Positions 8,115 to 64,000 of a stretch of DNA of 64,000 bases are shown here, piece by piece (positions within the stretch are counted from its first letter, which is position 1; every line of letters begins with the position of its first letter). Source of the stretch: an uncultured virus (IMG/VR IMGVR_UViG_3300042364_000900) (Duplodnaviria; Heunggongvirae; Uroviricota; Caudoviricetes). Below the pieces are notes generated by a model. It saw only the letters and a program-made list of their open reading frames with translations. It searched no databases and was not told the DNA's origin. Position numbers and translations under genes: made by a program. The stretch lies in the IMG/VR virus record IMGVR_UViG_3300042364_000900; one strand, written 5' to 3'.

Positions 8115-8502
8115 TTCTACCCCTAAAATCTGAGCATTTGTGCCAGCCCTCTGGGCCATCAGGATGAACAGCACAGTGCAGCGCGATCGCATCATCGCGG
8201 TTTAGATATCGGCATTTTCGACAGACAGGAGCTACCTGTCGGATTTTTTTGAGAACCCAGGCGAAGAAGCAGGCCAACGAGATAACTCCTGCCGCCGCGA
8301 TCGCCAGTAGGCACACAACAGACTGGAACTGAGAGACAATCTCAACCACAACATCGCTGAACAGCATTGAGGACAAAATGCGGAGCGCCCAGTAACAGAC
8401 ACAAATCAGCAGCGCCATGAGGCAGCAAAAGAACAAGACAACACCCTGTTCCATCCACATTTTCAAGAGAGCGATTAAACGAGGTTGATTTTTGTACATC
8501 AA
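8107..8502 (-). CDS. membrane protein with C-terminal Cys/His-rich (DUF6464-like) domain
   Basis: Two hydrophobic segments, then CRKCRY...CAVHPDGP...CSDF. Confidence 0.7.
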   Translation of the reverse strand: MMYKNQPRLIALLKMWMEQGVVLFFCCLMALLICVCYWALRILSSMLFSDVVVEIVSQFQSVVCLLAIAAAGVISLACFFAWVLKKIRQVAPVCRKCRYLNRDDAIALHCAVHPDGPEGWHKCSDFRGRND

Positions 8503-27534: not shown

Positions 27535-27811
27535 AAAAGGTCAGACTCGCTTTAACGGCTTTGATGACAAGATTCTATCCCTCTATGCCAGGGGGATGAG
27601 TACCCGTGACATTGCAGATCAACTGCAAGACCTCTACGGGGTTGAGGTGTCGGCTGGGTTGATCTCGAACGTCACCGAGGCTGTGGAGGAAGAGCGCAAA
27701 GCGTGGCAGAATCGAGCGCTGGACTCGCTCTATCCCATCGTCTATTTCGATGCCATTGTGGTCAAAGTTCGACAAGATGGACGGGTTATCAACAAGGCGA
27801 TTCACCTGGCG
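27535..27811 (+). pseudogene. IS256 family transposase internal fragment
   Basis: [18 protein letters not shown]...[10 protein letters not shown]...[24 protein letters not shown]. Confidence 0.9.
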
Positions 27812-27880
27812 CGTGGGGAAGATACATTGCACTGCCTGTATTTTAGCGCGATCGCTCCTTCTAAGTATTTTGGAGGAAGA

Positions 27881-29341
27881 TCAGCGAAATGGGACTGCTG
27901 GCCCCCCATTGCCAGACACTGGGGGACGTGGCTGAATCGTGACGAATGGGTCAATTGGTTCGCCGTTGCGGCGGATTTCGAAATGCAGATGATTGCCAAA
28001 TGAGTGGCCTGTGTTGCCCATTTCCCCTAAATCCTGATTTTGCTCTACCTTTGTTCCTGGCGCGATGCTGTCCGCCACCTTCGACAAGTGAGCGTATCGG
28101 GTTTCATCGCCATTGGGGTGTTGAATAAAAACTCGATTGCCGTAGCCGCCTCCACAGTTTACGTCCCCCACTTGGCAATTACGAACCACGTCTTTCACGA
28201 TGCCATCGGCAGACGCGACAATTCTACGGTTGGAACCTGCCAGATCGATTCCCTTGTGGTTTGACCCGGTCGATGCCCTCCAGCCCATCCGTGAGATGCA
28301 GGCATTCCCGACGCAGGGATTGGCGTATTGCGTTGGCTGGGAGGTGACCGTAGGACGCGGCATCGGTGCAATGCCTTGATCTGGATTATTTAAAAATATC
28401 TGTGGCGGAGGAGTATTTGGATCTGGTTTGTATCCGTACAGTTCTGCCTGGATGCCGCCTGGTGATAGTGGATAGAAAATAATTTCATCGCAGGTATAAG
28501 TTCCGTCTAGATCTGTTGCGATGCCTTTTACTTCAAATGTTTTTTGGGCATCTAAATTCAGGATGGACGGGTCTGCGTAGACATTTAGTAAACAACGAAT
28601 TTCGTGAGATCTCAGGTTGTCGAGTGCGTGAAGGCCGAGTGCGTAGGAGAGTGCATCGCCTTGGGATTGTGGGTTGTGGATGCCCGCAATAGTTCTGGCG
28701 GATCCAGATCCAGGGTCAATGCAGCCAAGGCCAGCTCCTTGATTGATCGGCATTGCACCGATTGCGGATGGATCAATGCCTCGATCGAATAATTTAAGGC
28801 AGCGATCGACGGATGCCGAAAATTTGTCGAACCCGTTAAGTCCGCCATTGACAGCTTGACGCACGCCGCGCCAATCACCACGTTCTGCCGACCGTTGTGG
28901 ATTGTTGCCGGTTGCGCCTTTCCAGTACCACATAAAGATTCGGGCAGCGGTGGCTGGCTCCAGCGCCATATCTGGGTTAGCGGTGAGGCCCGGTATGTTG
29001 AGATCGCGTTCAGCCTTCCGGTAGTTACTTTCCCAAGTAAGTTGCACATAGCCCCTACCGAACCAGGGCGAATATGGAGCGGTTGTGCCGCCAATTTCAC
29101 GCACCGGGGCAAAACGTGGCAGTGTTTCTACATGGATTGTTGACATTATTGCGATCAACTGATTTCGGCTGGTTAGACCAGCCTCTGCCATCGCCCGCAG
29201 GATAAAGGGCAGGTTTCGTTCTAGTGTCCTACGTTCTGCATCTGGGAACGCCTGTAGCATCAAATCGACAGGCGGATATATTTGGCTCCCGGGAACCGGG
29301 ATCACGTCTGTTGATCGTTGTGGCGATATAGGGGTATTCAA
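27881..29341 (-). CDS. tail-associated lysin: GH19-like glycosidase + hub C-terminal-like domain + M23 peptidase
   Basis: HVET...[11 protein letters not shown]...VNGGLNG; middle [16 protein letters not shown]...YGN......H......YAHL...GNTGHS.G.HLHFEIR. Confidence 0.85.
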
Positions 29342-46800: not shown

Positions 46801-49200
46801 GGCGATCGCTTCCTCATGGCCGCCAGCATCGTGGGTCAGGGCTTCGGCAGCATGACAATGGGGGCGTTGGCGTTTGGGGTAACTTCCCTCCTGAGCCTCG
46901 GCCCCGTAATCCTGACGCTGGGGGGCATCGGGTTGGCGGCCCTGGCGGTCGCGACCAACTTCCTGGGGTTACGCACCATTGTGGTGGGGGCAATTCGGGC
47001 GATCGTCGGGATTGTCCAGATCCTTGCCACAACCCTGAAGGGGGTGGTTCAGATCACTGCGGGTCTCACGAGAGTGCTGGCGGGTGCCCTCGCGATGCTG
47101 GGGGGCAACTTCGAGATGATCCATCACGGGATTGCCCAGGTGATCCAGGGGGTCAACACGATTTCGTTCGGGTTGGGTCAGGGTTTGCGAAATCTCATCG
47201 GGGGAGCCGTCCAGATGCTCCGGGGTGCATTCCAGGGATTGGGGCAGGTGGCACGCTTTACCCTGGGGGCAATCCAGCGGTCTGGAGCGTTGATCGCAAC
47301 GACATTCCGGCAGATCATTCAGTTGACCAAAGGGGTTGGCAATGCTCTCCTGAATGCCCTGACGCAGCCCCAGAAAGCTTGGAACCGATTTGTAGGGACA
47401 CTCCAGCAAGCCAAAAATGTCATCAGCAGGATCGCACAGTCCCCCCGGATTGCTGCCGATACTGTTGGGCTGGGGGCCAAAGGTAAGGCCCCCAGAATCC
47501 CGGAGAGCTACCAGATGGCTGAGTTCGATGATCGGCTCCGCAGTATCCCGTTTGTGGGGAATTATCTGGCGAATCAACAGGCCAACAACCCCGAACGTTT
47601 CAATGCACTGTCGGATGCGTTCGCCGGACTGACCGGGGTTTTGTCGGCACTATCCCCGGCGCTCGCGGCCCCATTGATGCTGTTCAGCGGATTGCTCGAT
47701 AGCGTCGTGATGCTGGCGACCTCAATCCCGATCCTTAAACCGATGATCCTTGGGTTTGCCGCCACCCTCAAGGGTATGGGGACTGCCGCCGGGTTCGCCG
47801 CCACCATGAACACGGCCCTGACGACTGCTCAAACTTTCTTGACGGGTGCCCTGACGATCGGGATGGGGGCCGCTAAAGCCTTCTGGGCTGCTATCAGCGG
47901 CCCACTCCTCCCGGTTGTCGTGGCGATCGGCCTGATTGTCGCGGGAGTCTGGGCGTTACTCCAGGCGTTCAATGTATTCGGCAGGATCGGCCAGCTCATC
48001 GGCGGAATCGTCCAGTCATTCCGGGAAGCTTGGGGCATTATTGACCGGGCATTCCGAGACGCGTTTGGCGGCATTATGATCGCGCTTAATCAACTCGGTG
48101 ATGCGATCGCGTCACCGTTTGAACCGCTGCTCCAGCTATTTGGCGCATCGGGCGGCGCTGGCCTCGCGGGCCTAATCAGCGGGACATTCCGGATAGCCCT
48201 TAACCCGATCCTCCTGGTAGCCCAAGGGATTGGGTTGGTGGTGCGGCTAATCGGTGCCGTTGTCGCCGGTGTGATCCAGGCGGGCGCATACATCACCCGG
48301 AAGCTGTTGTCACCGGTGGCGATCGCGCTCGAATGGATTATCGGTGCATTCCGGGACACCTTCGGGTTCATTGGGGAAACCCTCATGGAGGTAGGGAACT
48401 CCCTGGCGGAACCATTCGAACCGCTCCTCAATATGTTTGGAACCAGCGGCGCGGGCGGGCTGGTGGATCTGCTGGGCCGTGGAATTTCGATGCTCCTATC
48501 CCCCCTGGAGATCCTGGGGTTTGCGGTCTCGATGGTGGTGCGGCTCTTTGGAGTCGTCCTGGTGGGGGCAATCCGGCTGGTCGGGACAGTCCTGAAGCCA
48601 ATCATCTCCGTTATCCTGACGCCATTCCGGGTGATCGCAACCGTAATCCAGGGGGTTGTATGGCTGCTCCAGCAGATCCCAGCCCTCATGAGCGTGATTG
48701 CGAACGGCCTCTTGAGTGTTGTGCCCGAACCACTCCGCTGGTTGGTTGAATCCGCTCAAAAGATCACAGGGAATGGTCCCGCCGCTACGGGACCGACACC
48801 CCAGCGGTTTAGCACAGGTGGTCTCGTCACCGGGCCGTCCGGTGGCGACGTTATCCCCGCGCTCCTATCAAACCGGGAATTCGTCGTTAACCAGAACGCA
48901 ACCCGCCAGAACCTCGGGTTCCTTGAGGCGATTAATGCAGGGGTCCCGGCAGAGAAAGCCCTGGGCCTCATGCAGATCGCACCTCCCCCAATTGTCCGGC
49001 CTTCCGCCCAGGCGATCGCAGCCCCCGCCGATGCAACTCAACCCATTAGCGTTCAGGTCAACCTGACGTTCACGGGCAACATCATGGTGTCGGGCAACTC
49101 CGGGGAGGAAGTCGCATCTGAAATGATGCAACATCTCGAACCAAAGCTACAGATCGCCATCAGGGAAGCACTCCGCGATATGGTTGAACGGATGCGCTGA
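37825..49200 (+). CDS. phage tail tape measure protein (TP901 family core), 3791 aa
   Basis: FNDQMAQVKAV...AKELGASTRFSASEAA...LAQAG...LNLASAG...GLKGEMAGSAL, then long amphipathic repeats. The start may be TTG 37834 given GGAG spacing. Confidence 0.95.
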   Translation: MLVLAESERYGLFASFRFDAGTQDFAAMNRVVAGLRGIEEAARTTEQSLQSARLGQEVRRQMRSAAGSTATLERPLKTLRQEFRALRAESRNIDFGELGDTRQFKAATQQVHQYVDALESLGNQIEHNTSLEREFAAVVKRQQRIAQERIDMAEQQRKAAVAAQRLAGAQAVQQIGQAVAAPLGAMGRDSIKILSDFNDQMAQVKAVSDMTARELETVRNRAKELGASTRFSASEAASGFVLLAQAGYEVEDQLRAIDGTLNLASAGNLDLARATEITVSTLGQFQLEADKASHAANVLAMAAAMGQLDVSDIGESLKYAGVSAKRAGLSLEQTASMLALLSEGGLKGEMAGSALGQMLDGLVAPASTGAAALANLGVQTTDATGKLLPYEKILGRTIEALSKVSDESERASIQNKIFGVVGGRAAGILTPRYERIAKATAEIGKSADAGVGAAIKQSRIMEDTLGGSFRNFSSAMEGLKISLVEPLEPIIRAIIDTGSAVASFFAGLPGPIRGVISVGMGLTFVLAGLSAAIATVGIAAFGMQQAAATSSVGLLALRSSAIPLTGFFQTAMGAFSASGLAGLRRFAADLTLLPGPLGQVMVLIRGVGMAIATTPFGMAIAGFAALLALAEVLTPGFDLLGTTITLLVAPFRILGGLASGVLQGFGAAIDEISGQRLSPVAQEFAEFAKGLIDQIDSLEMSANSLGQSIGKAIAKGLAPLFTVQAAISRAIFSIWRGTITAITHAFDPLLRFARWVGNMLVSSLAENSPGPTAQIRQRWDETVQHVQDVMGQLVGTAQQVGQAVWQAFSWVAEGVARLFREVFGHLLVSRLVKQTDVLGVRIHNRVFGLLNDILTLPVELGSPATMFFDGLLARLTVVEEVLVAIAPAMRIALTGIIPVTLQSQIVDLNNSLLNYIRSLGGVEGVVMRSVGSFDLLLKVASFLFKAMARYPGLMAGLRQGLTVLGRFAGLAGLILSLADSLRTLSFLAQGLQRVLANMGVPSGWLDPVITGLNQTIQAVQNARQAFVGFARSILYGDWGSAAQQFSSAWTDSIALVQRMLGSPLLADLQVFSPGSMKSVLDDQKTWINSLQADVSLAIANPIVLLAAGIKAGKSLGKAITTGLVKQIDGVAKKFVSDFSTKLNATSGAALSVALLSLFFAPAGIPRLIAGFAPALVVALTNSGVLQKVQAWIVKGFGGLLERVDQAFGRQEWLHRLGEAFGLLDVIAKGTGTVIDTLAKSMSVRLGAAIAIVSPTVQSLINSLKEIYQIGGVPAVLQNLQVITRPLALALQQIASSIQQMGTALAGLAATSPLFRQLMASVGTAANLLMRIPLVEQLGAFAVSMGLGRRLMGMGQSAVSTAQQGGKVAINGMQQVIQLMLWIGQGVYQIAEPGGTSLKKVPSLLSRILGVASKILNPLPALVGLSGKATDAGGIPRITPVDILSQFLPEFLIPATEKAIAGTKVRKILAARQPGFEEFDPFKQRELVGRYVERLSNPLGLINTPLFGPVVMASIELVGGSLLGLIATIGLAAGALYVFKPELAKPLAGFFQVLAKGVVGLAFVLVQLGHSSRDAADSIDVLGLKLKAPGWAIATSKALNAMIRAVGAVAVAFTQVVDFALGIVPTLIRSTLLLVPIAFIGITKLMLQAIQGVLRRVRDDTKRLGDAIVAGVRQGDWSQLGSILKEAFMNALNVTLIPIARLVKYIAWDLIISPIASAVWWGLTTVGNAIGSVLLHPIRTINFLVNAIKAIGVAVASIRLVGLLQAFTRVSTVVYEFESAVGTTGVAIAAIATVASVALDPIIALVMGAVVAIGVLVQSYRDNFSVLTAVINGLQWAISSLQERMATLVQVFATPIKPLDWLFSPIANFLSGAGDKFVQWFPTILAAFVGLQVARKGLVGGFVSAFSIIAKAILSVVSAISQAITGMIRLGGKTREFSQTLEGEVMIEQARRVGRRAGQRFGLFQSNEPQAIQAERDQQFLEKSAIVRFRKSVQQTLKKTGGSLESISEEVLQQLAAKSRLDTSGVPGVVPLRELAARDSGQLEEIRDLYQQNIDNLKTADMRAQTVTLVSDKVEASNVVSITRGTTRKLSTPEDVSSLRFGAAELRALANMPGGERLRSGAGLSQEASRLETTLGEAAKRLEDIPLSVLKNLAQAVGVYQPRTSRDEDYRFLNTYKDQLDKQGLPGVQKQLLMLQILARTDQIPTPQELTKGIVSAEEALKAIHGALEHLYRAANVKGEGQADAFNQMAIDTLRGQLPFLTNQDVANVISLLDKNPNPDRIMMALQQVLDTQVDLFLQDSPIFTPVQEAAQKMEQVIQTTATEAIAQMPKGGLWAGLGKRLKVAVHDFMDSDRVRSFIENRQEQKQQRQIAAMTEQRRMRVAAIQRNSGASNQLDFLRRIGAIQDPTTQILEQRQRPVPSAPSSLPPAPPPPREYPMLPDPWEETEAERFFKGLARFTRSLRRQIPEVSEQTVEFFRTINRDGERSLERVNVVPLYRRMLMGAAGGARQALNQAATLFDRRAGIKPPEILQKPSGESPRIAGLLPAAREPVAPSQPGGNIQNPFKEIERGIWMFGTFYSTDKIKSAWKRTSDVIQNGIWPRLVNSAKQVGRKILSYIAENSPGPTAQIRQRYHETADSVVADMHHMEAAAARTGQKIKHSLVGGVGRAGVAIFGALSATGFATQSIASSLSTLGILDESTSDALFKFTELFSIVGAVGSLAAPLFGAVAATLGALIPIITTVGGAIATFLIGPIGLASGAIIGSLLLINEATKRLFGIDFIAPVVGRVMMMANAIRQPLDWAANWIEARWQQFRDRFAPILAPIVEPALEVAQQLINALNHNPTEVIPLAWEEAVQRIIGWISQLPGIGEWAAKQLNKVMQPGGVLSRWGATVKRWFSDLKQSPDGAVIAPTKKELPPLPPPPKVTAAEQWGDMMTALQRSGDPSQVLTPGLDQATYGFQFLLKSARQFGEESGAALKRLDFGALTGSAKAFGDRFLMAASIVGQGFGSMTMGALAFGVTSLLSLGPVILTLGGIGLAALAVATNFLGLRTIVVGAIRAIVGIVQILATTLKGVVQITAGLTRVLAGALAMLGGNFEMIHHGIAQVIQGVNTISFGLGQGLRNLIGGAVQMLRGAFQGLGQVARFTLGAIQRSGALIATTFRQIIQLTKGVGNALLNALTQPQKAWNRFVGTLQQAKNVISRIAQSPRIAADTVGLGAKGKAPRIPESYQMAEFDDRLRSIPFVGNYLANQQANNPERFNALSDAFAGLTGVLSALSPALAAPLMLFSGLLDSVVMLATSIPILKPMILGFAATLKGMGTAAGFAATMNTALTTAQTFLTGALTIGMGAAKAFWAAISGPLLPVVVAIGLIVAGVWALLQAFNVFGRIGQLIGGIVQSFREAWGIIDRAFRDAFGGIMIALNQLGDAIASPFEPLLQLFGASGGAGLAGLISGTFRIALNPILLVAQGIGLVVRLIGAVVAGVIQAGAYITRKLLSPVAIALEWIIGAFRDTFGFIGETLMEVGNSLAEPFEPLLNMFGTSGAGGLVDLLGRGISMLLSPLEILGFAVSMVVRLFGVVLVGAIRLVGTVLKPIISVILTPFRVIATVIQGVVWLLQQIPALMSVIANGLLSVVPEPLRWLVESAQKITGNGPAATGPTPQRFSTGGLVTGPSGGDVIPALLSNREFVVNQNATRQNLGFLEAINAGVPAEKALGLMQIAPPPIVRPSAQAIAAPADATQPISVQVNLTFTGNIMVSGNSGEEVASEMMQHLEPKLQIAIREALRDMVERMR

Positions 49201-49672
49201 CATCCTCCCCACGGCTAGAAGCCGGGGGGTTCCTGAACTGCCGTTGCCCTTTCGAGTTGCCCCTACTGAGGTCTTACACGCCATGTCCGATCCGAGCTTA
49301 CTAGAATATCCCTTGACATCTAGGTGCCCACTTCTGGATCGCTTTCCAGGCATCAATTCCCGTGTGCCCCACGGTACTCAAAGTTCTGTTTGGTTTTCGC
49401 AGTCGTTTGATCTGCTTAGCTGTTTAGAGCGTGTTCGCTACCGCTTTGCTGTTCTATTTTCCAGGCAGTCGTGTGGCACTGTTCCAGCCATATTTGTCGG
49501 GCACGTCCTGGCGGCATTTCAACCTGAAGCAACGCAATCTTAGCAGTTTTGGGTTGACCCCGACAAATAGTTGTCCGTTTCGGCTAATCGCTCCAACGGA
49601 CTTGAGAGGGGATGCTAAATCCCCATGTCTGAAGCCAGGGGCATTGCATCCCCTCTCAATCTCTCCCCTTCG
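49197..49672 (-). mobile_element. non-autonomous IS605-family element (476 bp) with omegaRNA-like right end, inserted 3' of TTAC
   Basis: Minus strand: TTAC, left-end hairpin (49602-49659), ...GAGTACCGTGGGGCACACGGGAATTGATGCCTGG..., right-end hairpin, GGATGTCAG. Confidence 0.82.
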
Positions 49673-49707
49673 GTAAGCCCTATAGACGCGATCGCATCCT
49701 GATGCTA

Positions 49708-49759
49708 AATAGTGATTACACCCCAGAATCCACAATGCTTCTGGGGTGTAATCACTATT
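49708..49759. repeat. inverted repeat with 21-bp arms
   Basis: AATAGTGATTACACCCCAGAA / TTCTGGGGTGTAATCACTATT. Confidence 0.7.
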
Positions 49760-49805
49760 ATTAATTGACGGCAATATATTGGTTTAATATAATTATATTA
49801 AGGCT

Positions 49806-50010
49806 TTGACACTCCCCACCGCATAGGCGGATGGGGATTCTTTAATCTACGAACCGACTTGCATGGGTGCAAGTAATCAAGGTTTCAAACCAGCCAGAGC
49901 ATTCCTGGCTGGTTTGAAACCTTGATTACTTGCGTCCAGAGCCGCGATGATCGGGCGGCTGATGGTTGCGAGTGCCAGAAGCCTGAGTGCGGCGTGGCCC
50001 GCCCTCGACG
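49806..50010 (-). mobile_element. IS605 right-end / omegaRNA-like remnant containing a palindrome with 29-bp arms (49869-49933)
   Basis: Minus strand AGGGCGGGCCACGCC...GCTTCTGG (tnpB tail-like) ... AAAGAATCCCC-hairpin-GTGTCAA. Confidence 0.6.
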
Positions 50011-50098
50011 GGGGGATCTTCGCTCTGGTTGCGAACAATGGGAGTCGGATCGGCGACGGGTGGAAGGTCAACGGGTTGAACAAAAAAGAAAAATGGCA

Positions 50099-50323
50099 TT
50101 AGAAGGGTGCTCCATGTAACTGCATCATTCGGCGGCTGTACGCCTCCTTTGCGATCTCGTGGAACCCTTCCTCAACATCCCGCTCCAGGCTCAACGGAAG
50201 GCTTAGTTTGGCGCAAACACGCCCATAAGCTACCGCGTCACCCCTGCAATTGATTTTTTCAGACTCGTTCAACGGTGTATCCGCCAAGCGTTCACGGTAT
50301 TTTTTTGAGTGGGTAAGTTGCAT
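50099..50323 (-). CDS. small hypothetical protein
   Basis: MQLTHSKKYRERL..., 74 aa. Confidence 0.5.
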   Translation of the reverse strand: MQLTHSKKYRERLADTPLNESEKINCRGDAVAYGRVCAKLSLPLSLERDVEEGFHEIAKEAYSRRMMQLHGAPF

Positions 50324-50439
50324 AATCAATGTGGACTCTTAGAAGGGTTCCAATCACCCCCACTGCGACGGCCTCGGAAACTGGCGCAGTGGGGGTTTTG
50401 GTTTGCGGTTAACCTCCACCGCAAGGGGCGATCGGAGTG

Positions 50440-50646
50440 CTACGAGAAATCAGACAGATCGGCCACCAGCCCCAAGGATTGCGCCGCCTCAATCAACCCC
50501 TCTTGAGAAGCAACCAGTACCGACACACCAGAATCCTTGATCGCCTGAGCCGCGATCGTCACATCCTCGAAATCAGCACCCGCAGACGGAAGATTCAGCG
50601 CTTCCGCGATCGTGCCGTCTTGAGTCCAAATGGTCGTAATAGCCAC
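50440..50646 (-). CDS. small acidic hypothetical protein
   Basis: 68 aa, GAGG RBS, 10 D/E versus 1 K. Confidence 0.65.
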   Translation of the reverse strand: MAITTIWTQDGTIAEALNLPSAGADFEDVTIAAQAIKDSGVSVLVASQEGLIEAAQSLGLVADLSDFS

Positions 50647-50698
50647 AACTTTTCCTCGCTCGATTTACCTTGGTTTGGGGCCGCCCCGTGCGCACCGA

Positions 50699-50851
50699 TT
50701 ACTCGGCGTCAAACTCGGCCAGAACCTCGTCGAGGACTTCCAGCGCCGCCAGGTAGCGGGCGCTGAATTCCTCGCGCTCCTCGTCGGTTTGGTACTGAGC
50801 ACCAATCGACTCGGCGGAAGCAAACAGAGCGGACAGGGTGGAATCGGACAT
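50699..50851 (-). CDS. small highly acidic protein (50 aa, below the ORF-track cutoff)
   Basis: GGAGG RBS; MSDSTLSALFASAESIGAQYQTDEEREEFSARYLAALEVLDEVLAEFDAE, 13 D/E versus 2 R. Confidence 0.7.
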   Translation of the reverse strand: MSDSTLSALFASAESIGAQYQTDEEREEFSARYLAALEVLDEVLAEFDAE

Positions 50852-50995
50852 GGGGTGAACCTCCAAAAAAACAACTCAACAAAACGTCCTTTCGGACTGG
50901 GATGAGTTATCTCAACAGACGGGCCTTTGTCCTCAGTCCCGGAACCCACTCCGGCGGGGAGCCTTTTTAAGGGGAGGCGCACCCCGCATGAATCT

Positions 50996-51067
50996 AAATT
51001 AACTTATTACGTTAAACCCGTCAAGAGAAAAGTTAAACTTGACTCGAAGCACTGAAAACATTAGTAT
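50996..51067. promoter_or_regulatory. back-to-back sigma70-type promoters with an inverted-repeat operator
   Basis: Leftward TTGACG-17-TAATTT (51024-50996); rightward TTGACT-17-TAGTAT (51039-51067); TTAAC-N7-GTTAA at 50999-51015. Confidence 0.7.
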
Positions 51068-51110
51068 AGACCTGTGGCACTCTACACAAGACAATCAAGG
51101 AGGTAATTCA

Positions 51111-51356
51111 GTGGTTCAAGCAGTCGTGGAAGTAATTCGCACAATCAAGGTATCTGCGCCCGAACTGGGCAAGCGCATTCGAGAGGCAAGAAAAGCCGAC
51201 GGGCGATCGGTCACCCAAATTGCTGCTGCTGCTGGGATGTCCGTCCAGAATTGGTATCGAATTGAGGACGAAAAGCAGGCATTACCAGAAGATACGCTCA
51301 GGCTAATTGAGAAGGTGTTGAGCGTTGATTTTGGCGTGAGTTTTCCGGGCCAATAA
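51111..51356 (+). CDS. XRE-family HTH transcriptional regulator
   Basis: GGAGG RBS before GTG; LGKRIREARK...SVTQIAAAAGMSVQNWYRIE. Confidence 0.88.
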   Translation: MVQAVVEVIRTIKVSAPELGKRIREARKADGRSVTQIAAAAGMSVQNWYRIEDEKQALPEDTLRLIEKVLSVDFGVSFPGQ

Positions 51357-51584
51357 AAAACGATCGCCCCCTCTCAAGACAACCACAGAACCTTGCTGCA
51401 CCAGTTTCTCGAACGCCACCCGATCGCCCGCACTAACCATCTGCACTGCCTTATCTAATGCAGCCTCAGAGGTAGCGGCGATCGCCCCTTCCACCGTGAA
51501 ATACTGCCCCGTTGGCAGCTCACTCTCAGGACGCGCTTCTACCTTCGGCTTTTGCTTCGGCCCCATTATTCCGATCTCGGTCAA
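51303..51584 (-). CDS. hypothetical protein or gene fragment downstream of the CRISPR mini-array
   Basis: Protein-like sequence, but weak start and 3' overlap with the HTH gene. Confidence 0.35.
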   Translation of the reverse strand: MTEIGIMGPKQKPKVEARPESELPTGQYFTVEGAIAATSEAALDKAVQMVSAGDRVAFEKLVQQGSVVVLRGGDRFLLARKTHAKINAQHLLN

Positions 51585-51624
51585 CTCTGCTCAGCCGTGT
51601 AGTGAGCGTGCCGAGCTGTTCGGG

Positions 51625-51776
51625 CGACTCACCCCTATGTGCGTGGGGAAGGCTGATGTAGCGCACTACTTCGATGGTGGAAGCGTAGACTCACCCCTAT
51701 GTGCGTGGGGAAGGCTAGTGAGATCATCTCACTTACCTCAGTCAAAGCGACTCACCCCTATGTGCGTGGGGAAGGC
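51625..51776 (-). CRISPR. orphan CRISPR mini-array, 3 repeats and 2 spacers, type I-E-like
   Basis: 29-nt repeat GCCTTCCCCACGCACATAGGGGTGAGTCG (minus strand; 28 nt identical in all three) at 51625, 51687 and 51748; unique spacers of 33 and 32 nt; CCCC..GGGG hairpin. Confidence 0.9.
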
Positions 51777-51935
51777 ACATTGCCCTGCCAGCATCAAAGC
51801 CTGATTGCCCCTACCTAAGTCTCGAAACCTGGGAACTATAAGGCAACAGGATAGCGATCGCTCCCGAATCTACACTATTGTAAAGAAAATAGCCAAGACC
51901 CCAGCGGGTTACAGAACACGAGAGAGCTGGGGCCA

Positions 51936-52787
51936 ATGGCTCGCACCCAAAGATTAAACCAACTGCAGGAAAACTTCTGCAACGAATACCTGGAAGACTT
52001 TGACGATCTGGAAGCAGTCCGTCGAGCAGGGTATCGATACAACAGCGATGCGGATCTAAACCGGATTGCGGGGGGGTTGCTAAGGAATCCTACGGTTCAG
52101 CAGCGGATTGCTGAATTACAACTTGAGCGAGCGCCCCTGACCGAGATGCAGAAGCGGGCCGCTCGCTACTTTGTTGTGGGGGGGTGTACCCAGACAGAAG
52201 CGTGCCGCAAGGCTGGGTATAAGGGCAATGATGCGACCCTTTGGGTTACGGCTTCGCGCCTCTTCAGTCGCCCAATGTTCAAACGGTATCTGGTGCGGCT
52301 CAACCGGATGTTGATTGAACGCTACATGGTCGATCACGACTGGGTATTTGAGCGGGCGAAGGAATGGATTGATTCCAGCAATGTCCAGATCACTGACGTG
52401 GCGGTGTTTCGGAATGGTCGAATCGACAGCATCAAGGATCTGTCGAAGTTGCCGCCCCACGTCGTCCGGGGCATCAAAAAGATTCGCCAAACCGAAACAA
52501 CCATCGGGGAAGATGGCACCCGGATCGAATACGAGATTGAGATGCGCGGCCCCGAACGCGCCGCCTTGGCGCTGATCGCCCGCCACATTGGGTTTGGAAA
52601 CGACTACAACGCTGCCCTCAATACACTTCACCGCTACGGCTACGAGGTGAAGGAACTGCCAGACGGCACCCTTGAGGGACGCCCATTTGATGCACCGCTG
52701 CCAGACAACGATCCATCCGAGGGATTCGATTTTGATGGCCTTGAGGTGCTCCCGCTGGTTGAGCTGGATCAGGAGTCTGATGCCTGA
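51936..52787 (+). CDS. terS: terminase small subunit with duplicated N-terminal HTH
   Basis: LNQLQENFCNEYL......AVRRAGY...LLRNPTVQQRI, then a second unit LTEMQKR...TEACRKAGY...SRLFSRP. Confidence 0.85.
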   Translation: MARTQRLNQLQENFCNEYLEDFDDLEAVRRAGYRYNSDADLNRIAGGLLRNPTVQQRIAELQLERAPLTEMQKRAARYFVVGGCTQTEACRKAGYKGNDATLWVTASRLFSRPMFKRYLVRLNRMLIERYMVDHDWVFERAKEWIDSSNVQITDVAVFRNGRIDSIKDLSKLPPHVVRGIKKIRQTETTIGEDGTRIEYEIEMRGPERAALALIARHIGFGNDYNAALNTLHRYGYEVKELPDGTLEGRPFDAPLPDNDPSEGFDFDGLEVLPLVELDQESDA

Positions 52788-54832
52788 TGTACGCGCTCGA
52801 TAGCGATCACCAACGCCGCTACCCCAGGAAGACCCGCCAGACCCGACGACGGCAGCAGGAAATCACCGCCCAGGAGCGCCGCCTTGATTTCTCGGCCCAA
52901 CAGGCACTGGAACGGCAGAGCGGAATAGATCTCTGGTATCGCCTCGGAGGCGATATGTTTCTCCAGTGGGCCAAGAGCCATTACCGCCGCAGCAACGGCG
53001 AGCCACTCCACTGGATTGAACCAACCCAGGAAGAGTTTTACCTCGTGATGGGGAACCCCTGGATTGAATTCCTGGTGGTCGAGAAGCCCTCGCAGGTTGG
53101 ATTCACCGAGTCCCTCATCGCGATGCTGGGGTTCATCCTGGCGGAAGTTAAGATTCCGTGCGGCCAGGGCTTCGAGGCAGAACGCAAGCTCCGGGAACTG
53201 GTGCCCAGGATTCAGTCCACATTCGATTTCATTGATCGGATCCAGGCAGTCCGGCGATCGCGCCGTGCCGCAACGGGTCGGAAGGATGTGGATCACAAGG
53301 AACGGAAAATGACGGTCGGGGGCGTGGAGTGTACGTTCTGGTACGCCAGCACCACCACCAAAAACAAGCAGGAACGACAAGCATCCAGTACGCTGTCGAG
53401 CTTCCCGGCCTGGTACCAGGGGGCAGACGAAATCGAACTGTACCCAGAGGGCGTCATTGATGTCGCCAAAAAACGGATGGCCGCGAGCACGCTCCAAACA
53501 AAACCCTTCAGGGTTGGGAGTACTCCCGGCCACGAGGGCGGTATCGTCGATTCACTGGTCCGCAGTTCACTCTACTTTTTCCAGTGGCGTGTCAGGTGTC
53601 CGGCCTGCGGGGAATCACAATTTCTGGATGGATTCGGCAACCTGCTGCAACCTGTCGCGCAGGAGCTGGATGACGGCACCGTTGAGGAACGGTATGTGGA
53701 TGTGACGGGCCGCCCTCTGAAATGGTTCTGCTACGACGACAGCACCCGGCGACTCAGCATCGATACTTCTTACATTGGATGCCAGCACTGCGGAGCCGAA
53801 CTACCCGAAGCGGCGATCGAATCCATCCCGCAGGGTGGAACTGGCGAATTCGTTTGCGTCAACACTGGTGCAAAACTCCGGGATGTGTGCCGCGACCTGA
53901 CACTCCGGCAGGAACCGCTCCATGATTCGGTGGCGTTGCGGCTCCCCCGGCTCGCATCCAAACTGTTCAATCCTGCCGAAACAATCCGGGATCTGATGAC
54001 CTCCCGGAACACTGCTGACGCGATCCAACAGGGCCTGGGCCGAGCCATCACGATCGGGGTCGGGAAAATCTCGCTGCCGCGCCTCCAGCGATCCAGCGGG
54101 TTGGCGTTGCCAGACTGGTGTCAGAGCCGCGCTCCAGATCTGGTTGTCCTGGGGGGTGACCAGGGCAGTGCATTCAACTATGCGGTTCGAACCGAATGGT
54201 ATCTCCCGCCAGATGAGCCAGATCCAGAAGTCCGCTGGCTCGGTGCCCATGTGGTTCTGAGTTGGTGGGGCCATGTCTACGGGTTCGACGGGGTAGAGGA
54301 TGAGATCGCCCGCCACGGCATTGATCTGGTGGGATTCGACGGTGAGCCGGAGAAACAGTTGGCTGCTGCATTCGCCCGGAAGCATCCCGCCCAGGCATTC
54401 TGGTACCAGAAGCCTGTGACTGATAAGGGTACGACCTGCTACCGATCCGGCGATCGCAAAGGCGCGACATTCCTGTTCGATCAGGTGCAGCTCAAGGGCG
54501 AAACATTCCGCCGCACTGAACGGAATATCCAGGATGAGCAAGTCCCGATCTATGCGCTCCACCGCACCTTCGGGTTAGATGCGGTGCGCGATCGCATCTA
54601 CCGGGGGCAGCTCCACATGCCGGAAGGGATGCAGTACGACCCGCGCGATGAAGAAAACCTGTTCCTCCACCTGTTGGCGAGCGAACGCCGTACCGATGGA
54701 ATCTGGAGCCAGACCCCTGGTATCCCGGATCACTACCACCATGCCTTGTGCTTCGCCGAGATGGCGGTTCTGGCTGCATTCTACGAACCCAGGCCCAAAC
54801 GGTTGGCGTTCGGCTCTTTCAAGCGAGGTTGA
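52787..54832 (+). CDS. terL: terminase large subunit (lambda gpA-like)
   Basis: VVEKPSQVGFTE (Walker A variant), GADEIE (Walker B), GSTP, CPACG, nuclease GGDQG...DHYHHA. Confidence 0.9.
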   Translation: MYALDSDHQRRYPRKTRQTRRRQQEITAQERRLDFSAQQALERQSGIDLWYRLGGDMFLQWAKSHYRRSNGEPLHWIEPTQEEFYLVMGNPWIEFLVVEKPSQVGFTESLIAMLGFILAEVKIPCGQGFEAERKLRELVPRIQSTFDFIDRIQAVRRSRRAATGRKDVDHKERKMTVGGVECTFWYASTTTKNKQERQASSTLSSFPAWYQGADEIELYPEGVIDVAKKRMAASTLQTKPFRVGSTPGHEGGIVDSLVRSSLYFFQWRVRCPACGESQFLDGFGNLLQPVAQELDDGTVEERYVDVTGRPLKWFCYDDSTRRLSIDTSYIGCQHCGAELPEAAIESIPQGGTGEFVCVNTGAKLRDVCRDLTLRQEPLHDSVALRLPRLASKLFNPAETIRDLMTSRNTADAIQQGLGRAITIGVGKISLPRLQRSSGLALPDWCQSRAPDLVVLGGDQGSAFNYAVRTEWYLPPDEPDPEVRWLGAHVVLSWWGHVYGFDGVEDEIARHGIDLVGFDGEPEKQLAAAFARKHPAQAFWYQKPVTDKGTTCYRSGDRKGATFLFDQVQLKGETFRRTERNIQDEQVPIYALHRTFGLDAVRDRIYRGQLHMPEGMQYDPRDEENLFLHLLASERRTDGIWSQTPGIPDHYHHALCFAEMAVLAAFYEPRPKRLAFGSFKRG

Positions 54833-58972: not shown

Positions 58973-59512
58973 TCAATATGGAATTTCCGTCTCTTCCCAG
59001 TCGCCGCATTCATCACCAGCGGGACCGTAAGGGTGCATCCCGCAGACCAACAGGATGTCGTTGTGGGTATGGCCATGATGGTGTTTGCATCCAAGGCATA
59101 TCGGGTTGGTGGCAGCAACTGGTTTATCCACCATGAAGGTCGTGATCGTCCAGTTGTCTTCCTGTTCCTTAACGGCAGATCCTGCCCTTGGGATTACCCG
59201 GAGGGTGACTTGATCCAGGTGCTTCCTTTCCCCAAGTTTGTACCCTTCGACCTGGCCCCAGATTGTGCGATCGCCATCCCGCAATATCCTGCCTGGTTGG
59301 ATGCTCCAGTTTTGACCCTGGTGAAATCTGATCCGAATGAGCATTGCTCCCGACATCGCATTGACTTCATGCCAATCCAGTACAAAGTTTGCTGACCACA
59401 GAACCGGGCCATCCCGATCGAACTCCATAATCAATCCAGGGGACCAATTCGTGTAACTGTAGGGTCCTGTCGGGCCTTGCAAATTTATTGAGGCAAATCT
59501 CCAGCATTGCAT
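58973..59512 (-). CDS. hypothetical protein with C-terminal DUF6464-like Cys/His domain
   Basis: CLGCKHHHG...LVCGMHPYGP..DECGDW; start uncertain. Confidence 0.65.
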   Translation of the reverse strand: MQCWRFASINLQGPTGPYSYTNWSPGLIMEFDRDGPVLWSANFVLDWHEVNAMSGAMLIRIRFHQGQNWSIQPGRILRDGDRTIWGQVEGYKLGERKHLDQVTLRVIPRAGSAVKEQEDNWTITTFMVDKPVAATNPICLGCKHHHGHTHNDILLVCGMHPYGPAGDECGDWEETEIPY

Positions 59513-59589: not shown

Positions 59590-59615
59590 AAAAAAGCCAC
59601 CCCCGTAGGAGCGGC
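59590..59615 (-). terminator. intrinsic terminator downstream of the radical SAM operon
   Basis: Minus strand GCCGCTCC-TACG-GGGGTGGC-TTTTTT. Confidence 0.7.
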
Positions 59616-59734: not shown

Positions 59735-60619
59735 TTAAAGGCGACGAGCGATCGCCGCTTCATGAACCGATTCAGGGGTAGAGCTTGCCACGTTCGAGAT
59801 TCGCAACAGCTCGTTTACCATCGCGATCGCCTCAGTTTTGGTTACCCGAGGCGACAGTTTCAACCCATCCCGGAGATACCACTCCTTTGGAGAGAGAAGC
59901 GATAGGCCAGCATCAGTGACCCGATCGCGCCATCCATCCTCTGGTAGCACTTCGTCAATACCGTGTCCCTCGTACAACAGCTTACTGGAATCAGGCATCC
60001 AGTCCCTCATTGTTTCGGAATTATAGCGCAGGCCCTTGATGCAAACCTCCTGATACCCCAACTCACACAGTCGTGGCAGAAACGACAAATCTGAAACACC
60101 GGAGATGTAGGGATGGCACATAGGTAGGCATCTTACGCTGAACTCCTGTGCCAACTCCAGAGTGCGGAGATGCACTCGACTAGGAACACGCTCGACTGGC
60201 GGTTTGTTGCCAGTGATGGTGACAACCAGGAACAGGTTTGGGATTTGAGCCAGTTCCTGCATCAGATCTCGGTTGATGCTCCACTTGGTCACGACTGTCA
60301 GTAATTTGGCCTCTAAGTGAGTACTGTGAACCCATTCCCAAAAGAACGGGAGTAACTGTGGCATCATGCCATCTGTTACGGCGGTCCAACCAGCAAAGTC
60401 GCCTCGAAACAAACGCCAGGGAGTTGCTTTGAAACGCTGTTGAGTCTCCTGATCTTCCGTAATCCAGGGCGGTACATTCATGAAGGTGCAAGCTTTGTTG
60501 ATGCCCAACAGGCCGCGTGACCAGGCAGCGGTACGGTTGGCGTCCAGTTCGGTGACGTGGCAGTACCGACAGGCAACCGGACAGGCGGGCTTGCCTACTT
60601 CAAACCGAAATTCGCCCAT
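59735..60619 (-). CDS. radical SAM enzyme (spore-photoproduct-lyase-like fold)
   Basis: CPVACRYC (CX3CX2C), VVTK, VTITG, HPYISGVSD. Confidence 0.85.
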   Translation of the reverse strand: MGEFRFEVGKPACPVACRYCHVTELDANRTAAWSRGLLGINKACTFMNVPPWITEDQETQQRFKATPWRLFRGDFAGWTAVTDGMMPQLLPFFWEWVHSTHLEAKLLTVVTKWSINRDLMQELAQIPNLFLVVTITGNKPPVERVPSRVHLRTLELAQEFSVRCLPMCHPYISGVSDLSFLPRLCELGYQEVCIKGLRYNSETMRDWMPDSSKLLYEGHGIDEVLPEDGWRDRVTDAGLSLLSPKEWYLRDGLKLSPRVTKTEAIAMVNELLRISNVASSTPESVHEAAIARRL

Positions 60620-61172
60620 GCCGTGCCAGCTCCTTCAGTATTGCTAAGGTTACATCCTGCTGGGGTTGTTCTGCGTCAACCTCAACAAGGTGATTCAATT
60701 CCTGCCAGTTCGCCCTGTAGCCAATGTTCTGCAATAGCTCAGGCAGTCGCGATCGCTCCATTTCCATCCGGGACTTCCATTTCTCCAGGGAGTCGCCTGC
60801 GCGATCGCGGTCTACGACACGGCGCTGACTCTCTTGCTCTGAAATCTTCAGATGCACAAAAAAATTGAGAAAGCCGTCCCATGAAATGGAGTCTTTCTGA
60901 ATTCGATCACGGGGGAAGCCATCCACGATGCATCCCCCTTGCTTGGGGACAGAATCGTAAAATAGCGCGATTGCTACGTCCGGTGACAAAGGCTCCCAGT
61001 TGGATCTTTTATGTACTTCACGAATGCAATCTGCCAGTTGCCCCTCTCCATTTTTGGCAAGTTCACGGGCGCGATCGCCCAGACTTATGTGGGGAACATT
61101 CAGTATCTTGCTGAGTGCTTCCCCTTGAGTCCCCTTGCCTGCGCCAGGTAATCCCAGTAAAAAGATTCTCAT
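60600..61172 (-). CDS. nucleoside monophosphate kinase (adenylate kinase family, short LID)
   Basis: GLPGAGKGTQ P-loop, HISLGD..RE, IVDGFPR. Confidence 0.9.
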   Translation of the reverse strand: MRIFLLGLPGAGKGTQGEALSKILNVPHISLGDRARELAKNGEGQLADCIREVHKRSNWEPLSPDVAIALFYDSVPKQGGCIVDGFPRDRIQKDSISWDGFLNFFVHLKISEQESQRRVVDRDRAGDSLEKWKSRMEMERSRLPELLQNIGYRANWQELNHLVEVDAEQPQQDVTLAILKELARHGRISV

Positions 61173-61408
61173 GATTGAGCCAACCTAACGTTGCTGTACT
61201 GTGGGTCTCCGGTTACTTCCAGCCATAACCAGTCTGGTAGAACCGGAATGTCCGCCAGCTTAATTTCAGCGATCACCAGTCCATCGTGATTACCCTCAAA
61301 CTTATCGACAGTCCACAGTTGATCGCCTACTTTGATCTCGTGCCGGACTTTGCTGAGTCGATACATTGCTGTCTGTTGAAGGTCGATCGCATCGGCAATC
61401 GGAATCTC

Positions 61409-62848
61409 TTGACTTCTCCCCCGCATGAATGACGGGGGATTCCCAAGTGATGCTACGCAACGGGCTGAAGCCGCGTTGCTTCGCTTTTCCCTTGAGCTGT
61501 CACCCACAACTTAATGCGGGTGGGGGCAGTCAAAGACCCCCTACCAACTCCGCTCAGACTAAATCCAAGCATCGTCGCTACTTTACGCAGAATGTTGGCA
61601 GCGCCATTACAATCCGCGTTGATATACCAATTCTGAGCAGTCCTGAACAACCCCCGCTTCGTTCGCTTCCCAGATGACTTCCAGCTATCAGGTTTTTCAC
61701 CGAATGTCGGCAAAAAGTCATCATCCACAAACGACGCTTGAGAGGTATACGACTCCTCAGTTTCAACAAACTCTATCCCATGCTGCTCTGCTAACTGAGC
61801 AATGCGCTCTTTCAGCTTTGCAGTTGGGATCTGCACAAACTTCTGATTGGTCTTCTTGCCCAGGTTGGAGCCGTCCTTTTGCCGCTGGTTCCAGCCAAAT
61901 ACAATTCGTCCAATCCGGTTTTTGATGCAATGGTCAACGACAATCCGCGCTGCCTTGTTCACCGCGTCGCGCATCTGACGATTGCGTTTCTCGGTGAGTT
62001 GAGCAAGTCGTTTCGACCAAAAGTCCTGTGACTTGCCCTCTTTCAGCGAGGCAATCTGTTTGTTGTGCCAGCGGTTCAGCGATTTGAGGTGCAGTCCATC
62101 CACAATGAAGCTGGTTCCCACATTGCTGACGCAGGTGAGCCAATTATTCAGTCCCGAATCAATCCCCAGCACCCGCATCGGGTCTACATCAACTTGGACG
62201 GGTTTCAGGCGATAGACAAACTCAGTGTAGAAACACCCGTTGCGCGGCAGAATCCGTAGTTCTTTAATGTCCTCAAATTTGAGGTTAGAGGGCATTGGAA
62301 CGGTGAACGAATCAATCTGGAACCACGTCTTCACCAACTGCCCCAGCGGAACCCGGATCATCCCATCAATCAGTTTCAGCGCTTGTTTGGGATAGCTGAC
62401 TACTGCCAACCCTCCCTTCTTCCGGTAGTCGGGCAATTTGGGCTTCTCTGCCAACTCTCCGTCCCGCCACAGCTTTGACAATGCTCGATACGACTTGAAT
62501 GACTCGTAGACTGAGCGAAGAACTTGTTGTGCAGCTTGGGAATAGAGAACTTGGAAGTGCTTACTGGATTTGTACTCAGCATCCAGGGTGAATTTGCCAA
62601 TCCACCGCCCGGTCTTGAAATGCAGTTGACGGGCATAGTAGATGCCCTGATTAGTCAGCTTGTTCGCCTCAGAGCAGATAAACTCCACCACCGCCCTGAG
62701 TTCGTTGTTGGGGTTAAGTAAAACTTGCTGGCATCCAAACATAAGACAATTGTACCAACTATTTCATCTCACTGGGGGCTAAAGCCCCTTGAGTTGACTG
62801 TATCCCCTCGCTGAAGCGGAGGGGCTTTAGTCTGCCCACATCGCCTCA
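61409..62848 (-). mobile_element. tnpB-only (IS1341-type) IS200/IS605 element, 1440 bp, inserted 3' of TTAC and ending TCAA
   Basis: Hairpins at 62804-62824 and 61418-61438; removal restores the CYTH frame and the F-D-Y-E-I-P motif. Confidence 0.9.
61453..62742 (-). CDS. tnpB: TnpB, Zn-finger-less subfamily
   Basis: LGIDSGLNN, IVFGWN (no canonical RuvC-II Glu), TEESYTS, INADCNGAANI. Confidence 0.92.
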   Translation of the reverse strand: MFGCQQVLLNPNNELRAVVEFICSEANKLTNQGIYYARQLHFKTGRWIGKFTLDAEYKSSKHFQVLYSQAAQQVLRSVYESFKSYRALSKLWRDGELAEKPKLPDYRKKGGLAVVSYPKQALKLIDGMIRVPLGQLVKTWFQIDSFTVPMPSNLKFEDIKELRILPRNGCFYTEFVYRLKPVQVDVDPMRVLGIDSGLNNWLTCVSNVGTSFIVDGLHLKSLNRWHNKQIASLKEGKSQDFWSKRLAQLTEKRNRQMRDAVNKAARIVVDHCIKNRIGRIVFGWNQRQKDGSNLGKKTNQKFVQIPTAKLKERIAQLAEQHGIEFVETEESYTSQASFVDDDFLPTFGEKPDSWKSSGKRTKRGLFRTAQNWYINADCNGAANILRKVATMLGFSLSGVGRGSLTAPTRIKLWVTAQGKSEATRLQPVA

Positions 62849-63050
62849 GTAATCAAAGACCTGGCGAACGCCATTAACCCGATTACTAAGCACCGAAAGA
62901 TACCCAATCTCTGGAGTCAGGGAACTAACGCGAACCCGGATTTCGGGTTCGATCGATAGGTACGCCTGAGTGATATTTCTAGTTCGCTCCGGGATAGCAA
63001 AAAGCAACCAGTAATCGCTCTTGACTAAAAACTTTCGCTCAATATCCTGT

Positions 63051-64000
63051 TTAGGCATTGATGTGCTCCAGTTGCAAAATGCGACTCGGGCTCATCCCGA
63101 CAGTTACTTGAAACTCTGGCGGCAATACATCCTCAAACATTGAAAGGAAGCAGTAGGAGCATTTCAGGCACTTTTTGGCGGGAATGTACTCACTCCACAC
63201 CATCCAAGAGTTCACGCCGTACAACACTCCTTCGCCATTGCCATCAGGCATTGAAAAGCGGGGATGGAGCCGCACGTTGCTATTTTCACCAGGGGGAATT
63301 GTGGGATCTGTTGCCAGCATTCCACCTGTCAGGAAGCGCGCTAACGACATCTCGCCCCAGGACGGAACACTGCCGTCCCATGCCCGAACGTTAATGTAGG
63401 GTGCTCCCATGTCGGGAGTCTTGGGGCAGTTGGTGCAACATAGGGTGCATTGCGATCGCACCTCCACGCCGCACCGCTGATACCGTTCCGAGGCGGTATG
63501 CACTTCAACCTGAAAGCCGAGATAGCGAAGCAATTCTACACTATCGGCGACCGGCTGGATGAACTGAGCGGCACCTGCACAGGAGTCTTTCAGGGAACAG
63601 CGATCGCACCCAACGAATTTAGGCGCAACGTAGTACGGGTTGAGGCTGCGGGGCTTGCCTGACAATGCCGCTACTGCACATTGGGTTCGAGTCCAGTAGG
63701 GAATACCCAGATCTTCCGCAAGTTGCACCATTTGCTCTGCTGTTATCTGCGGCGTCAACTTTAGGGTTCGCATCCAGTTTTGTGCATCTGGAGCGGGAAT
63801 ATTTTGCAACCCCGCATCGTTAACGACGCGATTGTCACCACGGAATCCAGAAGAAATGATCGCATGGCAACCGGCGTTCACCGAGCGTTCAAACATTTCC
63901 CGAATTAGCTCAGGAGAATCGTTGACTGTGTGGATAATGGGGCGGATGTAAGCAATCGCTTTTGCGCCAGCCTCACGCGCAACCGCTAGTGTGCGGTTGC
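63051..64000 (-). CDS. probable radical SAM enzyme (SPL-like) with Cys-rich C-terminal extension; 5' part outside the window
   Basis: Frame open to the window edge: AYIRPIIHTVND...AGCHAIISSGFR. Cys clusters CDRCSLKDSC, CTLCCTNC, CLKCSYC. The CX3CX2C motif is not visible here. Confidence 0.6.
   Translation of the reverse strand, partial: NRTLAVAREAGAKAIAYIRPIIHTVNDSPELIREMFERSVNAGCHAIISSGFRGDNRVVNDAGLQNIPAPDAQNWMRTLKLTPQITAEQMVQLAEDLGIPYWTRTQCAVAALSGKPRSLNPYYVAPKFVGCDRCSLKDSCAGAAQFIQPVADSVELLRYLGFQVEVHTASERYQRCGVEVRSQCTLCCTNCPKTPDMGAPYINVRAWDGSVPSWGEMSLARFLTGGMLATDPTIPPGENSNVRLHPRFSMPDGNGEGVLYGVNSWMVWSEYIPAKKCLKCSYCFLSMFEDVLPPEFQVTVGMSPSRILQLEHINA

Follow-up and report, generated by a model that had tools for sequence, protein, structure and literature searches.

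What does a phage operon that pairs radical S-adenosylmethionine (SAM) proteins with a nucleotide kinase make, and which of its genes belong together? The question is raised by the end of a 64,000-nucleotide stretch of DNA from an uncultured virus (IMG/VR record IMGVR_UViG_3300042364_000900), referred to here at its full length as the window. Four genes follow one another there on the minus strand: gene B, which runs off the window end; a CYTH triphosphatase gene interrupted by an insertion sequence (IS); a nucleoside monophosphate (NMP) kinase gene; and gene A, which encodes a radical SAM protein. They are joined by stop/start overlaps at 63051/63058, 61169/61172, and 60600/60619, and a terminator-like hairpin with a T-run (59590..59615, minus strand) lies about 120 nt past the stop of A. 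A preliminary description, made from the letters of the window, had given this layout, and the list of open reading frames (ORFs) and a hairpin search returned the same coordinates. The hairpin (59615-59596) has 8 pairs, 6 of them G-C, followed by TTTTTT; the region has five terminator-like sites compared to a mean of 4.8 in shuffled sequences, a count that is not above the shuffles. The evidence below points to a conserved core smaller than the four-gene set, namely, B followed by A, whose products most likely form a single radical SAM enzyme of two subunits with a free nucleotide as its substrate. We put the probability of this reading at about 0.5.

Gene A (59735..60619, minus strand, 294 amino acids [aa]) has the motif and the fold of a canonical radical SAM protein, and it is predicted to cleave SAM. 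Residues 13 to 20 read CPVACRYC, the CX3CX2C motif claimed at the outset, with cysteines at positions 13, 17, and 20 and an aromatic residue (Y19) before the third one. C13, C17, Y19, and C20, together with a C-terminal RR, are invariant in an alignment of 28 gene A sequences. A structure search returned a partial TIM-barrel radical SAM fold, with NifB and PFL-AE among the top matches and AbmM at rank 36. Gene A had no match to PF04055 (Pfam) at E up to 0.1, and neither A nor B matched any family in Pfam, NCBIfam, PADLOC, or PHROGs. Because none of these collections covers A or B, the cassette appears to be unnamed, as had been supposed from the start; a description of the A-B-kinase gene combination was likewise not found in the open PMC or bioRxiv literature. 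A search at E up to 0.001 gave 167 homologues of A; identity is 48 to 75% over nearly the full length for the 120 listed. A precomputed PF04055 match exists for 8 of these 120, five are named "DNA repair photolyase" (JGI), and one is named "radical SAM protein" (NCBI). In the ESM Atlas, A sits among clusters that are 56 to 86% viral, followed by clusters of the spore photoproduct lyase (SPL) family, and a BFVD search returned only generic phage radical SAM proteins. No match to A was found by tblastn in plasmids or GenBank phages, a single-protein scan of genome contigs gave no relative, and PDB sequence profiles gave nothing meaningful for A or B.

Gene B is present in the window as its 3′ 315 codons (minus strand; ORF 63051..63998, open at the window end and thus occupying 63051..64000). 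The homologue search yielded a full-length version, P0286, with 407 aa, of which the last 315 are identical to the window fragment; B should therefore start about 274 nt past the window end. B had been described as a second radical SAM protein with a Cys-rich tail, and a lack of CX3CX2C in the upstream protein had been named beforehand as one of the findings that would count against the proposed pathway. The tail and the barrel homology were confirmed, but the canonical motif was not found. The first 135 residues of P0286 are free of cysteine, so an N-terminal CX3CX2C is missing, and the sequence LPVSINNLADP occupies the position of A's cluster loop. The sole string in P0286 that is compatible with CX3CX2C, CTLCCTNC at residues 276 to 283, lies in the tail and is missing the aromatic residue. 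Profile-profile comparison of A and B (hhalign) gave a probability of 94% (E 1.3e-7) over 107 columns, with the barrel core in common. A structure model of B (predicted local distance difference test score, 82) matched radical SAM barrels over residues ∼10 to 200, and the radical SAM targets aligned to it only downstream of their own cluster loops. Foldseek returned generic TIM barrels only, with a few radical SAM rows, and PF04055 was weakly matched by 2 of 14 B homologues. The C-terminal half is Cys rich, with 11 cysteines invariant across the 14 homologues, and the Cys motifs in P0286 include CDRCSLKDSC (CX2CX5C), CTLCCTNC (CX2CCX2C), and CLKCSYC (CX2CX2C). The shared barrel, the missing loop, and the Cys-rich tail together indicate that B is a paralogue of A in which the SAM-cluster loop has been lost and a Cys-rich domain acquired. 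Judged from its sequence and model, B is not a second standard radical SAM enzyme.

The association of the two genes is seen in their relatives. Scans with the alignment of A brought in 45 loci, 9 of them from species-representative genomes (GTDB), 9 viral, and 27 metagenomic; some of these were duplicated between collections, and the A segments were collapsed at 97% identity into 31 groups. B was found within 6 kb of A in 29 of the 31 groups, almost always immediately upstream, and the two groups without B are contigs, 1781 and 1141 nt long, that stop short of where B would lie. When no gene separates them, A and B overlap by 4 nt, as in loci L005 and L006. The pair is rare (9 loci among the GTDB species-representative genomes scanned). 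The hosts named for the genome loci belong to the candidate phyla radiation (CPR; Saccharibacteria, Paceibacterota, Moraniibacteriota, and Patescibacteria), apart from one "Gammaproteobacteria" metagenome-assembled genome (MAG) and two unclassified MAGs. The pair is also highly conserved, with about 50% identity between the phage and CPR relatives. The closest named relative is a Leptolyngbyaceae MAG, where the locus tags of A and B are 13685 and 13700; the numbering suggests that two genes lie between them, as in the window. B occurs as two subtypes that share about 30% identity, and these are clustered on the A tree (3 changes compared to ∼8 in shuffles; none of 500 shuffles was as low). In the viral loci, a portal gene adjoins the pair. 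Directly downstream of A in these loci (L011:10985-14818 and relatives) is a ∼1270-aa fusion of portal, InPase (inorganic pyrophosphatase-like), and LPD1 parts.

Some trends were apparent among the genes that accompany the pair. First, a SufS-like class-V aminotransferase (desulfurase) is the most frequent companion, being present in 19 of the 31 groups. Second, an ADK-type kinase lies between B and A in 10 groups. Third, two kinds of cupin recur, each in 6 groups: a 148-aa cupin upstream of B and a ∼127-aa cupin with an HxH...E...H motif between B and the kinase. Finally, what lies between B and A varies; this slot is empty or holds a cupin, a kinase, a cupin plus a kinase, or CYTH plus a kinase. 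The conserved four-gene cassette expected earlier was not recovered, since a profile of 14 CYTH relatives found CYTH in none of the 45 fetched loci and an unrelated cupin holds the slot in 6 of the 31 groups. The slot cupin was considered as a CYTH relative and rejected (hhalign probability, 0.1%).

The kinase of the window (60600..61172, minus strand, 190 aa) had been assigned to the adenylate kinase family, and this assignment was borne out: it passes Pfam ADK (PF00406) with 52.9 bits compared to a cutoff of 26.8 (E 5.7e-14). It falls below every NCBIfam adk cutoff (best, 63.4 bits compared to 168 or more). Its best solved relatives are adenylate kinases (E 4e-13), followed by UMP/CMP kinases (∼1e-8 to 1e-7). 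By these scores it is predicted to be an ADK-fold NMP kinase and not a host housekeeping Adk. Its link to the radical SAM pair, also proposed earlier, is now seen at three levels: in its recurrence between B and A; in proteins P0061 and P0068, where a kinase is fused in frame to A; and in locus L004, where a kinase is fused to the small cupin. Because the ADK-type kinase recurs between B and A and, in one lineage, forms a fusion with A, a free nucleotide would be the most likely substrate of the pair. The kinase could then either make the nucleoside diphosphate substrate or phosphorylate the product.

The variable slot also bears on a different explanation, namely, that the substrate is not a nucleotide at all (the pair acting, for example, on a cofactor, on a peptide, or in Fe-S assembly) and that the kinase and CYTH are unrelated passengers in the slot. 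Both the changing content of the slot and the groups without a kinase fit this; the desulfurase would serve Fe-S supply equally well as sulfur chemistry, and the best structural matches of A include NifB and PFL-AE. The in-frame kinase-A fusion and the stop/start overlaps in the window argue instead for a shared pathway, and the recognizable noncupin accessories, the ADK-type kinase and CYTH, act on phosphorylated nucleotides or triphosphates. We consider a nonnucleotide substrate very unlikely.

The CYTH gene is the part of the cassette that none of the fetched loci has, and in this genome it is broken. Its 5′ piece of 70 codons (62849..63058; ORF 62846..63058, minus strand) ends at TTAC, and its 3′ piece consists of 79 codons plus the stop (61169..61408; ORF 61169..61507, minus strand). 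Neither piece alone had a Pfam match. The profile of 14 CYTH relatives matched the C-terminal piece with E 2.4e-27 and the N-terminal piece with E 1.3e-11, in agreement with the initial CYTH assignment. Relatives of the C-terminal piece numbered 1811 at E up to 0.001, and PF01928 was found in 9 of the 10 tested (two long fusion proteins included); the last CYTH homologue search returned 6 proteins. The N-terminal piece aligns to residues 1 to 70 of ∼155-aa CYTH proteins, and in the alignment to intact CYTH its end (...VFDY) abuts the start of the C-terminal piece (EIPIADA...). Without the IS the protein has 149 aa, similar in size to the NeuTTM-type CYTH inorganic triphosphatase (PDB 2fbl/3typ), and its C-terminal half aligns to residues 80 to 150 of the 153 residues of 2fbl (E 0.012). 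Unlike its NeuTTM-type relatives, the window gene is split by an IS and is changed at near-invariant positions. The EXEXK region is retained as DIERK, but five positions that are near-invariant in the 14 relatives are substituted: E4D, K53L, E63V, and E65D, together with AEIKL in place of AExEL. These substitutions may have altered its activity.

Since the break follows TTAC (62852-62849) and the frame resumes at 61408, the insert can be placed at 61409..62848 (1440 bp, minus strand). It is an IS200/IS605-family insertion whose sole gene is tnpB (ORF 61453-62742, minus strand; NF040570, 173 bits compared to a cutoff of 100, and a Pfam OrfB_IS605 match), and TTAC is presumably a typical target of that family. 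An allele without the IS exists in nature. In an independent lake run (X6), a 542-nt contig that is about 92% identical connects 61407 directly to 62850 before running into the 3′ end of B, and further contigs of that run span A, the kinase, and B at ∼90 to 93% identity. These contigs show that the four genes, with an unbroken CYTH, also exist in a close relative. At 61409 and 62852, loose ends belonging to further copies of the IS were seen, and in three runs the IS is covered at greater depth and with variant sequences, which indicates that the element is multicopy in these communities. CYTH is therefore a real gene in related genomes; in this one it is, from its sequence, a divergent member of its family that the IS has split and would have inactivated. 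It appears to have been recruited recently, and specifically in this lineage, into the variable slot that separates B from the kinase, and it is predicted to be nonfunctional here. A further oddity at this gene was observed in P0362, a protein from a 1252-nt ENA contig; in its 186-aa ORF an N-terminal ABC-ATPase fragment is fused in frame to a CYTH C-terminal half that is 82% identical to that of the window. This is either a second rearrangement at the same gene in a relative or an assembly chimera.

How the pair might work can be outlined from these parts. The CX3CX2C loop of A would carry the [4Fe-4S] cluster that cleaves SAM. B would keep the barrel without the loop and add a ∼200-residue domain whose 11 invariant cysteines are sufficient in number to ligate two or three auxiliary Fe-S clusters. 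The SufS-like desulfurase of the relatives may load or rebuild these clusters and is possibly a sulfur source, and the CYTH triphosphatase, where intact, could hydrolyze a competing normal nucleoside triphosphate or the triphosphate of the product. The product might serve as a component of modified phage nucleic acid or as a toxic analogue. Several observations weigh against this reading. The kinase is missing from 21 of the 31 groups, and no desulfurase or cupin was found in the 64 kb of the window, so that the link to nucleotides is drawn from a minority of loci and from the fusions. CYTH is dispensable in this genome, and several of its family-conserved positions are substituted. At least two switches of B subtype are forced on the A tree, which makes the coinheritance of A and B strong but not absolute. 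In addition, the SPL-like radical SAM enzymes described in the excerpt of PMC8989533 (SPL and phage M6 gp53) act on DNA and not on free nucleotides. As for the pathway for a modified nucleotide put forward in the preliminary description, the B-A core and the kinase link stood, and a nucleotide role is a reasonable interpretation; the conservation of all four genes did not, and its CYTH member is inactivated by the IS.

The last of these objections leads to a second explanation, that A and B act on DNA, either in SPL-like repair or in a postreplicative modification. The precedent is phage M6, in which gp51-54 place an SPL-like radical SAM isomerase beside a pyridoxal phosphate (PLP) enzyme and a P-loop kinase (according to the excerpt of PMC8989533). 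As far as that source describes it, M6 resembles the cassette in that a phage gene cluster combines these three kinds of enzyme. The "DNA repair photolyase" label on 5 of the 120 listed A homologues and the SPL-family clusters near A in the Atlas are consistent with action on DNA, as are genes for UDG or Fpg near the pair in L004 and L043. The window itself also encodes DNA modification enzymes: a Mom-family protein (3791-4546, minus strand; partial match, E 4e-12), a 625-aa C5-cytosine methylase of the Dcm type (6318-8195, minus strand), and a Dam-type methylase (11078-12142, minus strand), all three from the domain scan of window ORFs. These genes represent an investment of the phage in DNA modification apart from the cassette. 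However, the families involved differ. Those of M6 are HMUDK_HMUD1, HMUDK_hel, ADDT, and PALP (Pfam), compared to ADK and Aminotran_5 for the cassette, and none of the M6 families was found in the scanned window ORFs or in the neighbors of related loci; this includes the 5-hmdU DNA kinase families (PF18748 and PF18723) and the amino acid:DNA transferase family (PF18724), whose models do match the M6 genes. M6 gp53 aligned to A and to B with hhalign probabilities of only 4 to 5%, and none of the SPL/COG1533-type hidden Markov models (SplB, Rv2578c, and PA0069 families) was significant for A or B of the window. We know of no counterpart in SPL of the B subunit or of A's invariant C-terminal RRL. 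The ADK-type NMP kinase architecture points to free nucleotides. We consider action on DNA unlikely.

The closest gene logic to the two-subunit nucleotide enzyme is found outside phages. In Photorhabdus, thmABC encode a radical SAM enzyme, a nucleoside kinase, and a nucleoside triphosphatase that make 4′-thiothymidine, and in albomycin synthesis the Fe-S cluster of AbmM itself is the sulfur donor (both as given in the excerpt of PMC12691670). The likeness of thmABC to the cassette is one of gene content, as far as the source describes it, and there are clear differences. The kinase is of the ADK type in the cassette compared to the AbmG/dCK type, and the triphosphatase is a CYTH protein. The cassette enzyme would be a pair of paralogous proteins, unlike those of thmABC and AbmM. 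The setting is phage and CPR genomes in one case and antibiotic gene clusters in the other. Even so, a cluster that gives up its sulfur, as reported for albomycin in that excerpt, would explain why relatives of the cassette have a dedicated desulfurase. Sulfur chemistry is thus an attractive possibility, suggested by the desulfurase and the many cysteines of B. Its most specific form would be a split radical SAM enzyme in which A is the SAM-cleaving subunit and B a multicluster, sacrificial sulfur donor, fed by the desulfurase and the NMP kinase and making a thio-substituted or ring-modified nucleotide for a nucleic acid or a weapon in phages and CPR bacteria. This detailed version is speculative, and we think it improbable as it stands. 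If true, it would represent a new route to noncanonical nucleotides and a new radical SAM architecture. Independently of the chemistry, A and B are a further, uncurated pair of families with an unusual architecture, a canonical subunit plus a loop-less, Cys-rich paralogue, and the fusions and accessories narrow the substrates to a short list. Should the product be a new nucleotide, it would be relevant to the modification of phage DNA, to nucleotide antimetabolites, and to the recruitment of auxiliary clusters by radical SAM enzymes.

Pairs of radical SAM enzymes and nucleotide kinases elsewhere have given antiviral chain terminators (viperins) as well as thionucleoside antibiotics. A third explanation follows from this, namely, that the pair acts in phage-host conflict by producing or degrading a signal or toxin derived from a nucleotide; this might be a viperin-like chain terminator in prophage defense, or it might be antidefense by removal of a host signal. 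The radical SAM-plus-kinase combination recalls prokaryotic viperins, the kinase weakly matches the PADLOC pVip-kinase model (E 1.2e-4), and the window encodes ParB, a hint of a temperate or plasmid-like life cycle. The neighbors of the pair in some CPR and phage relatives also fit. Csx3-like small proteins (Pfam Cas_csx3, E 1e-5 to 4e-9) were found there, along with a ∼250-aa family of no assigned function in 6 nonredundant loci, SpoT-type HD_4 hydrolases in 3 loci, and TrmB-type regulators in 6. The loci with these neighbors are L003, L004/L024, L005/L028, L009, L029, and L035 and also L011-L014/L019, and such a neighborhood could be a nucleotide-signal or conflict island. On the other hand, the Csx3-like, HD_4, and ∼250-aa neighbors are all missing from the window, as are the 148-aa cupin and TrmB. 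A and B matched no PADLOC family at E up to 1, and this includes pVip, the prokaryotic viperin. Viperin lacks both a second subunit and an auxiliary-cluster domain, unlike the cassette with the Cys-rich domain of B, and the JGI names and Atlas neighbors of A are SPL-like, not viperin-like. A role in conflict therefore seems decidedly improbable to us.

The remainder of the window is the genome of a tailed phage, as shown by terminase, tape measure, and baseplate genes in the domain scan of its ORFs. The small and large terminase genes lie at 51936-54832, and no match to the large terminase was found among the phages searched. The baseplate protein, M15 and M23 peptidases, and ParB came from the same scan. 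A 40-base pattern from the window end had no match in viral or metagenome contigs. In run X2, a contig reaches about 12.8 kb past position 64000. The octamer HIP1 (GCGATCGC) occurs 85 times in the window compared to ∼2 expected, some of the copies being within cassette genes, and this excess reads as a cyanobacterial signature of the phage genome. The 1440-bp IS has no copy; at the density of the window it should contain ∼2, a difference that is not significant. Lake-water metagenome runs contain the same DNA as the window.

A few other features deserve mention. A 179-aa ORF just past the terminator (58973-59512, minus strand) has a His/Cys-rich stretch, CLGCKHHHGHTHND...CGMHPYGPAGDEC, and is without a Pfam match. 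The tape measure-like protein, 3791 aa in a single ORF (37825-49200, plus strand), is unusually long; its PhageMin_Tail domain is confined to residues 220 to 419, and the G+C content of this stretch is 0.56 to 0.60 compared to ∼0.52. The ∼2.7 kb from the tape measure gene to the small terminase gene (49200-51936) has no ORF of at least 120 aa and no tRNA or Rfam match, and a search of the whole window likewise found no tRNA and no Rfam family. A second IS200/IS605 element at the window start (1-1650) consists of tnpB (1-1167, minus strand) and an IS200-type tnpA (1228-1650, plus strand). It has no DNA similarity to the IS in CYTH, and its TnpA could mobilize TnpB-only elements in trans. Finally, a fragment of a Mutator-family transposase (27596-28003, plus strand), covering profile positions 115 to 188 of 379, is flanked by lysis-type peptidase genes.

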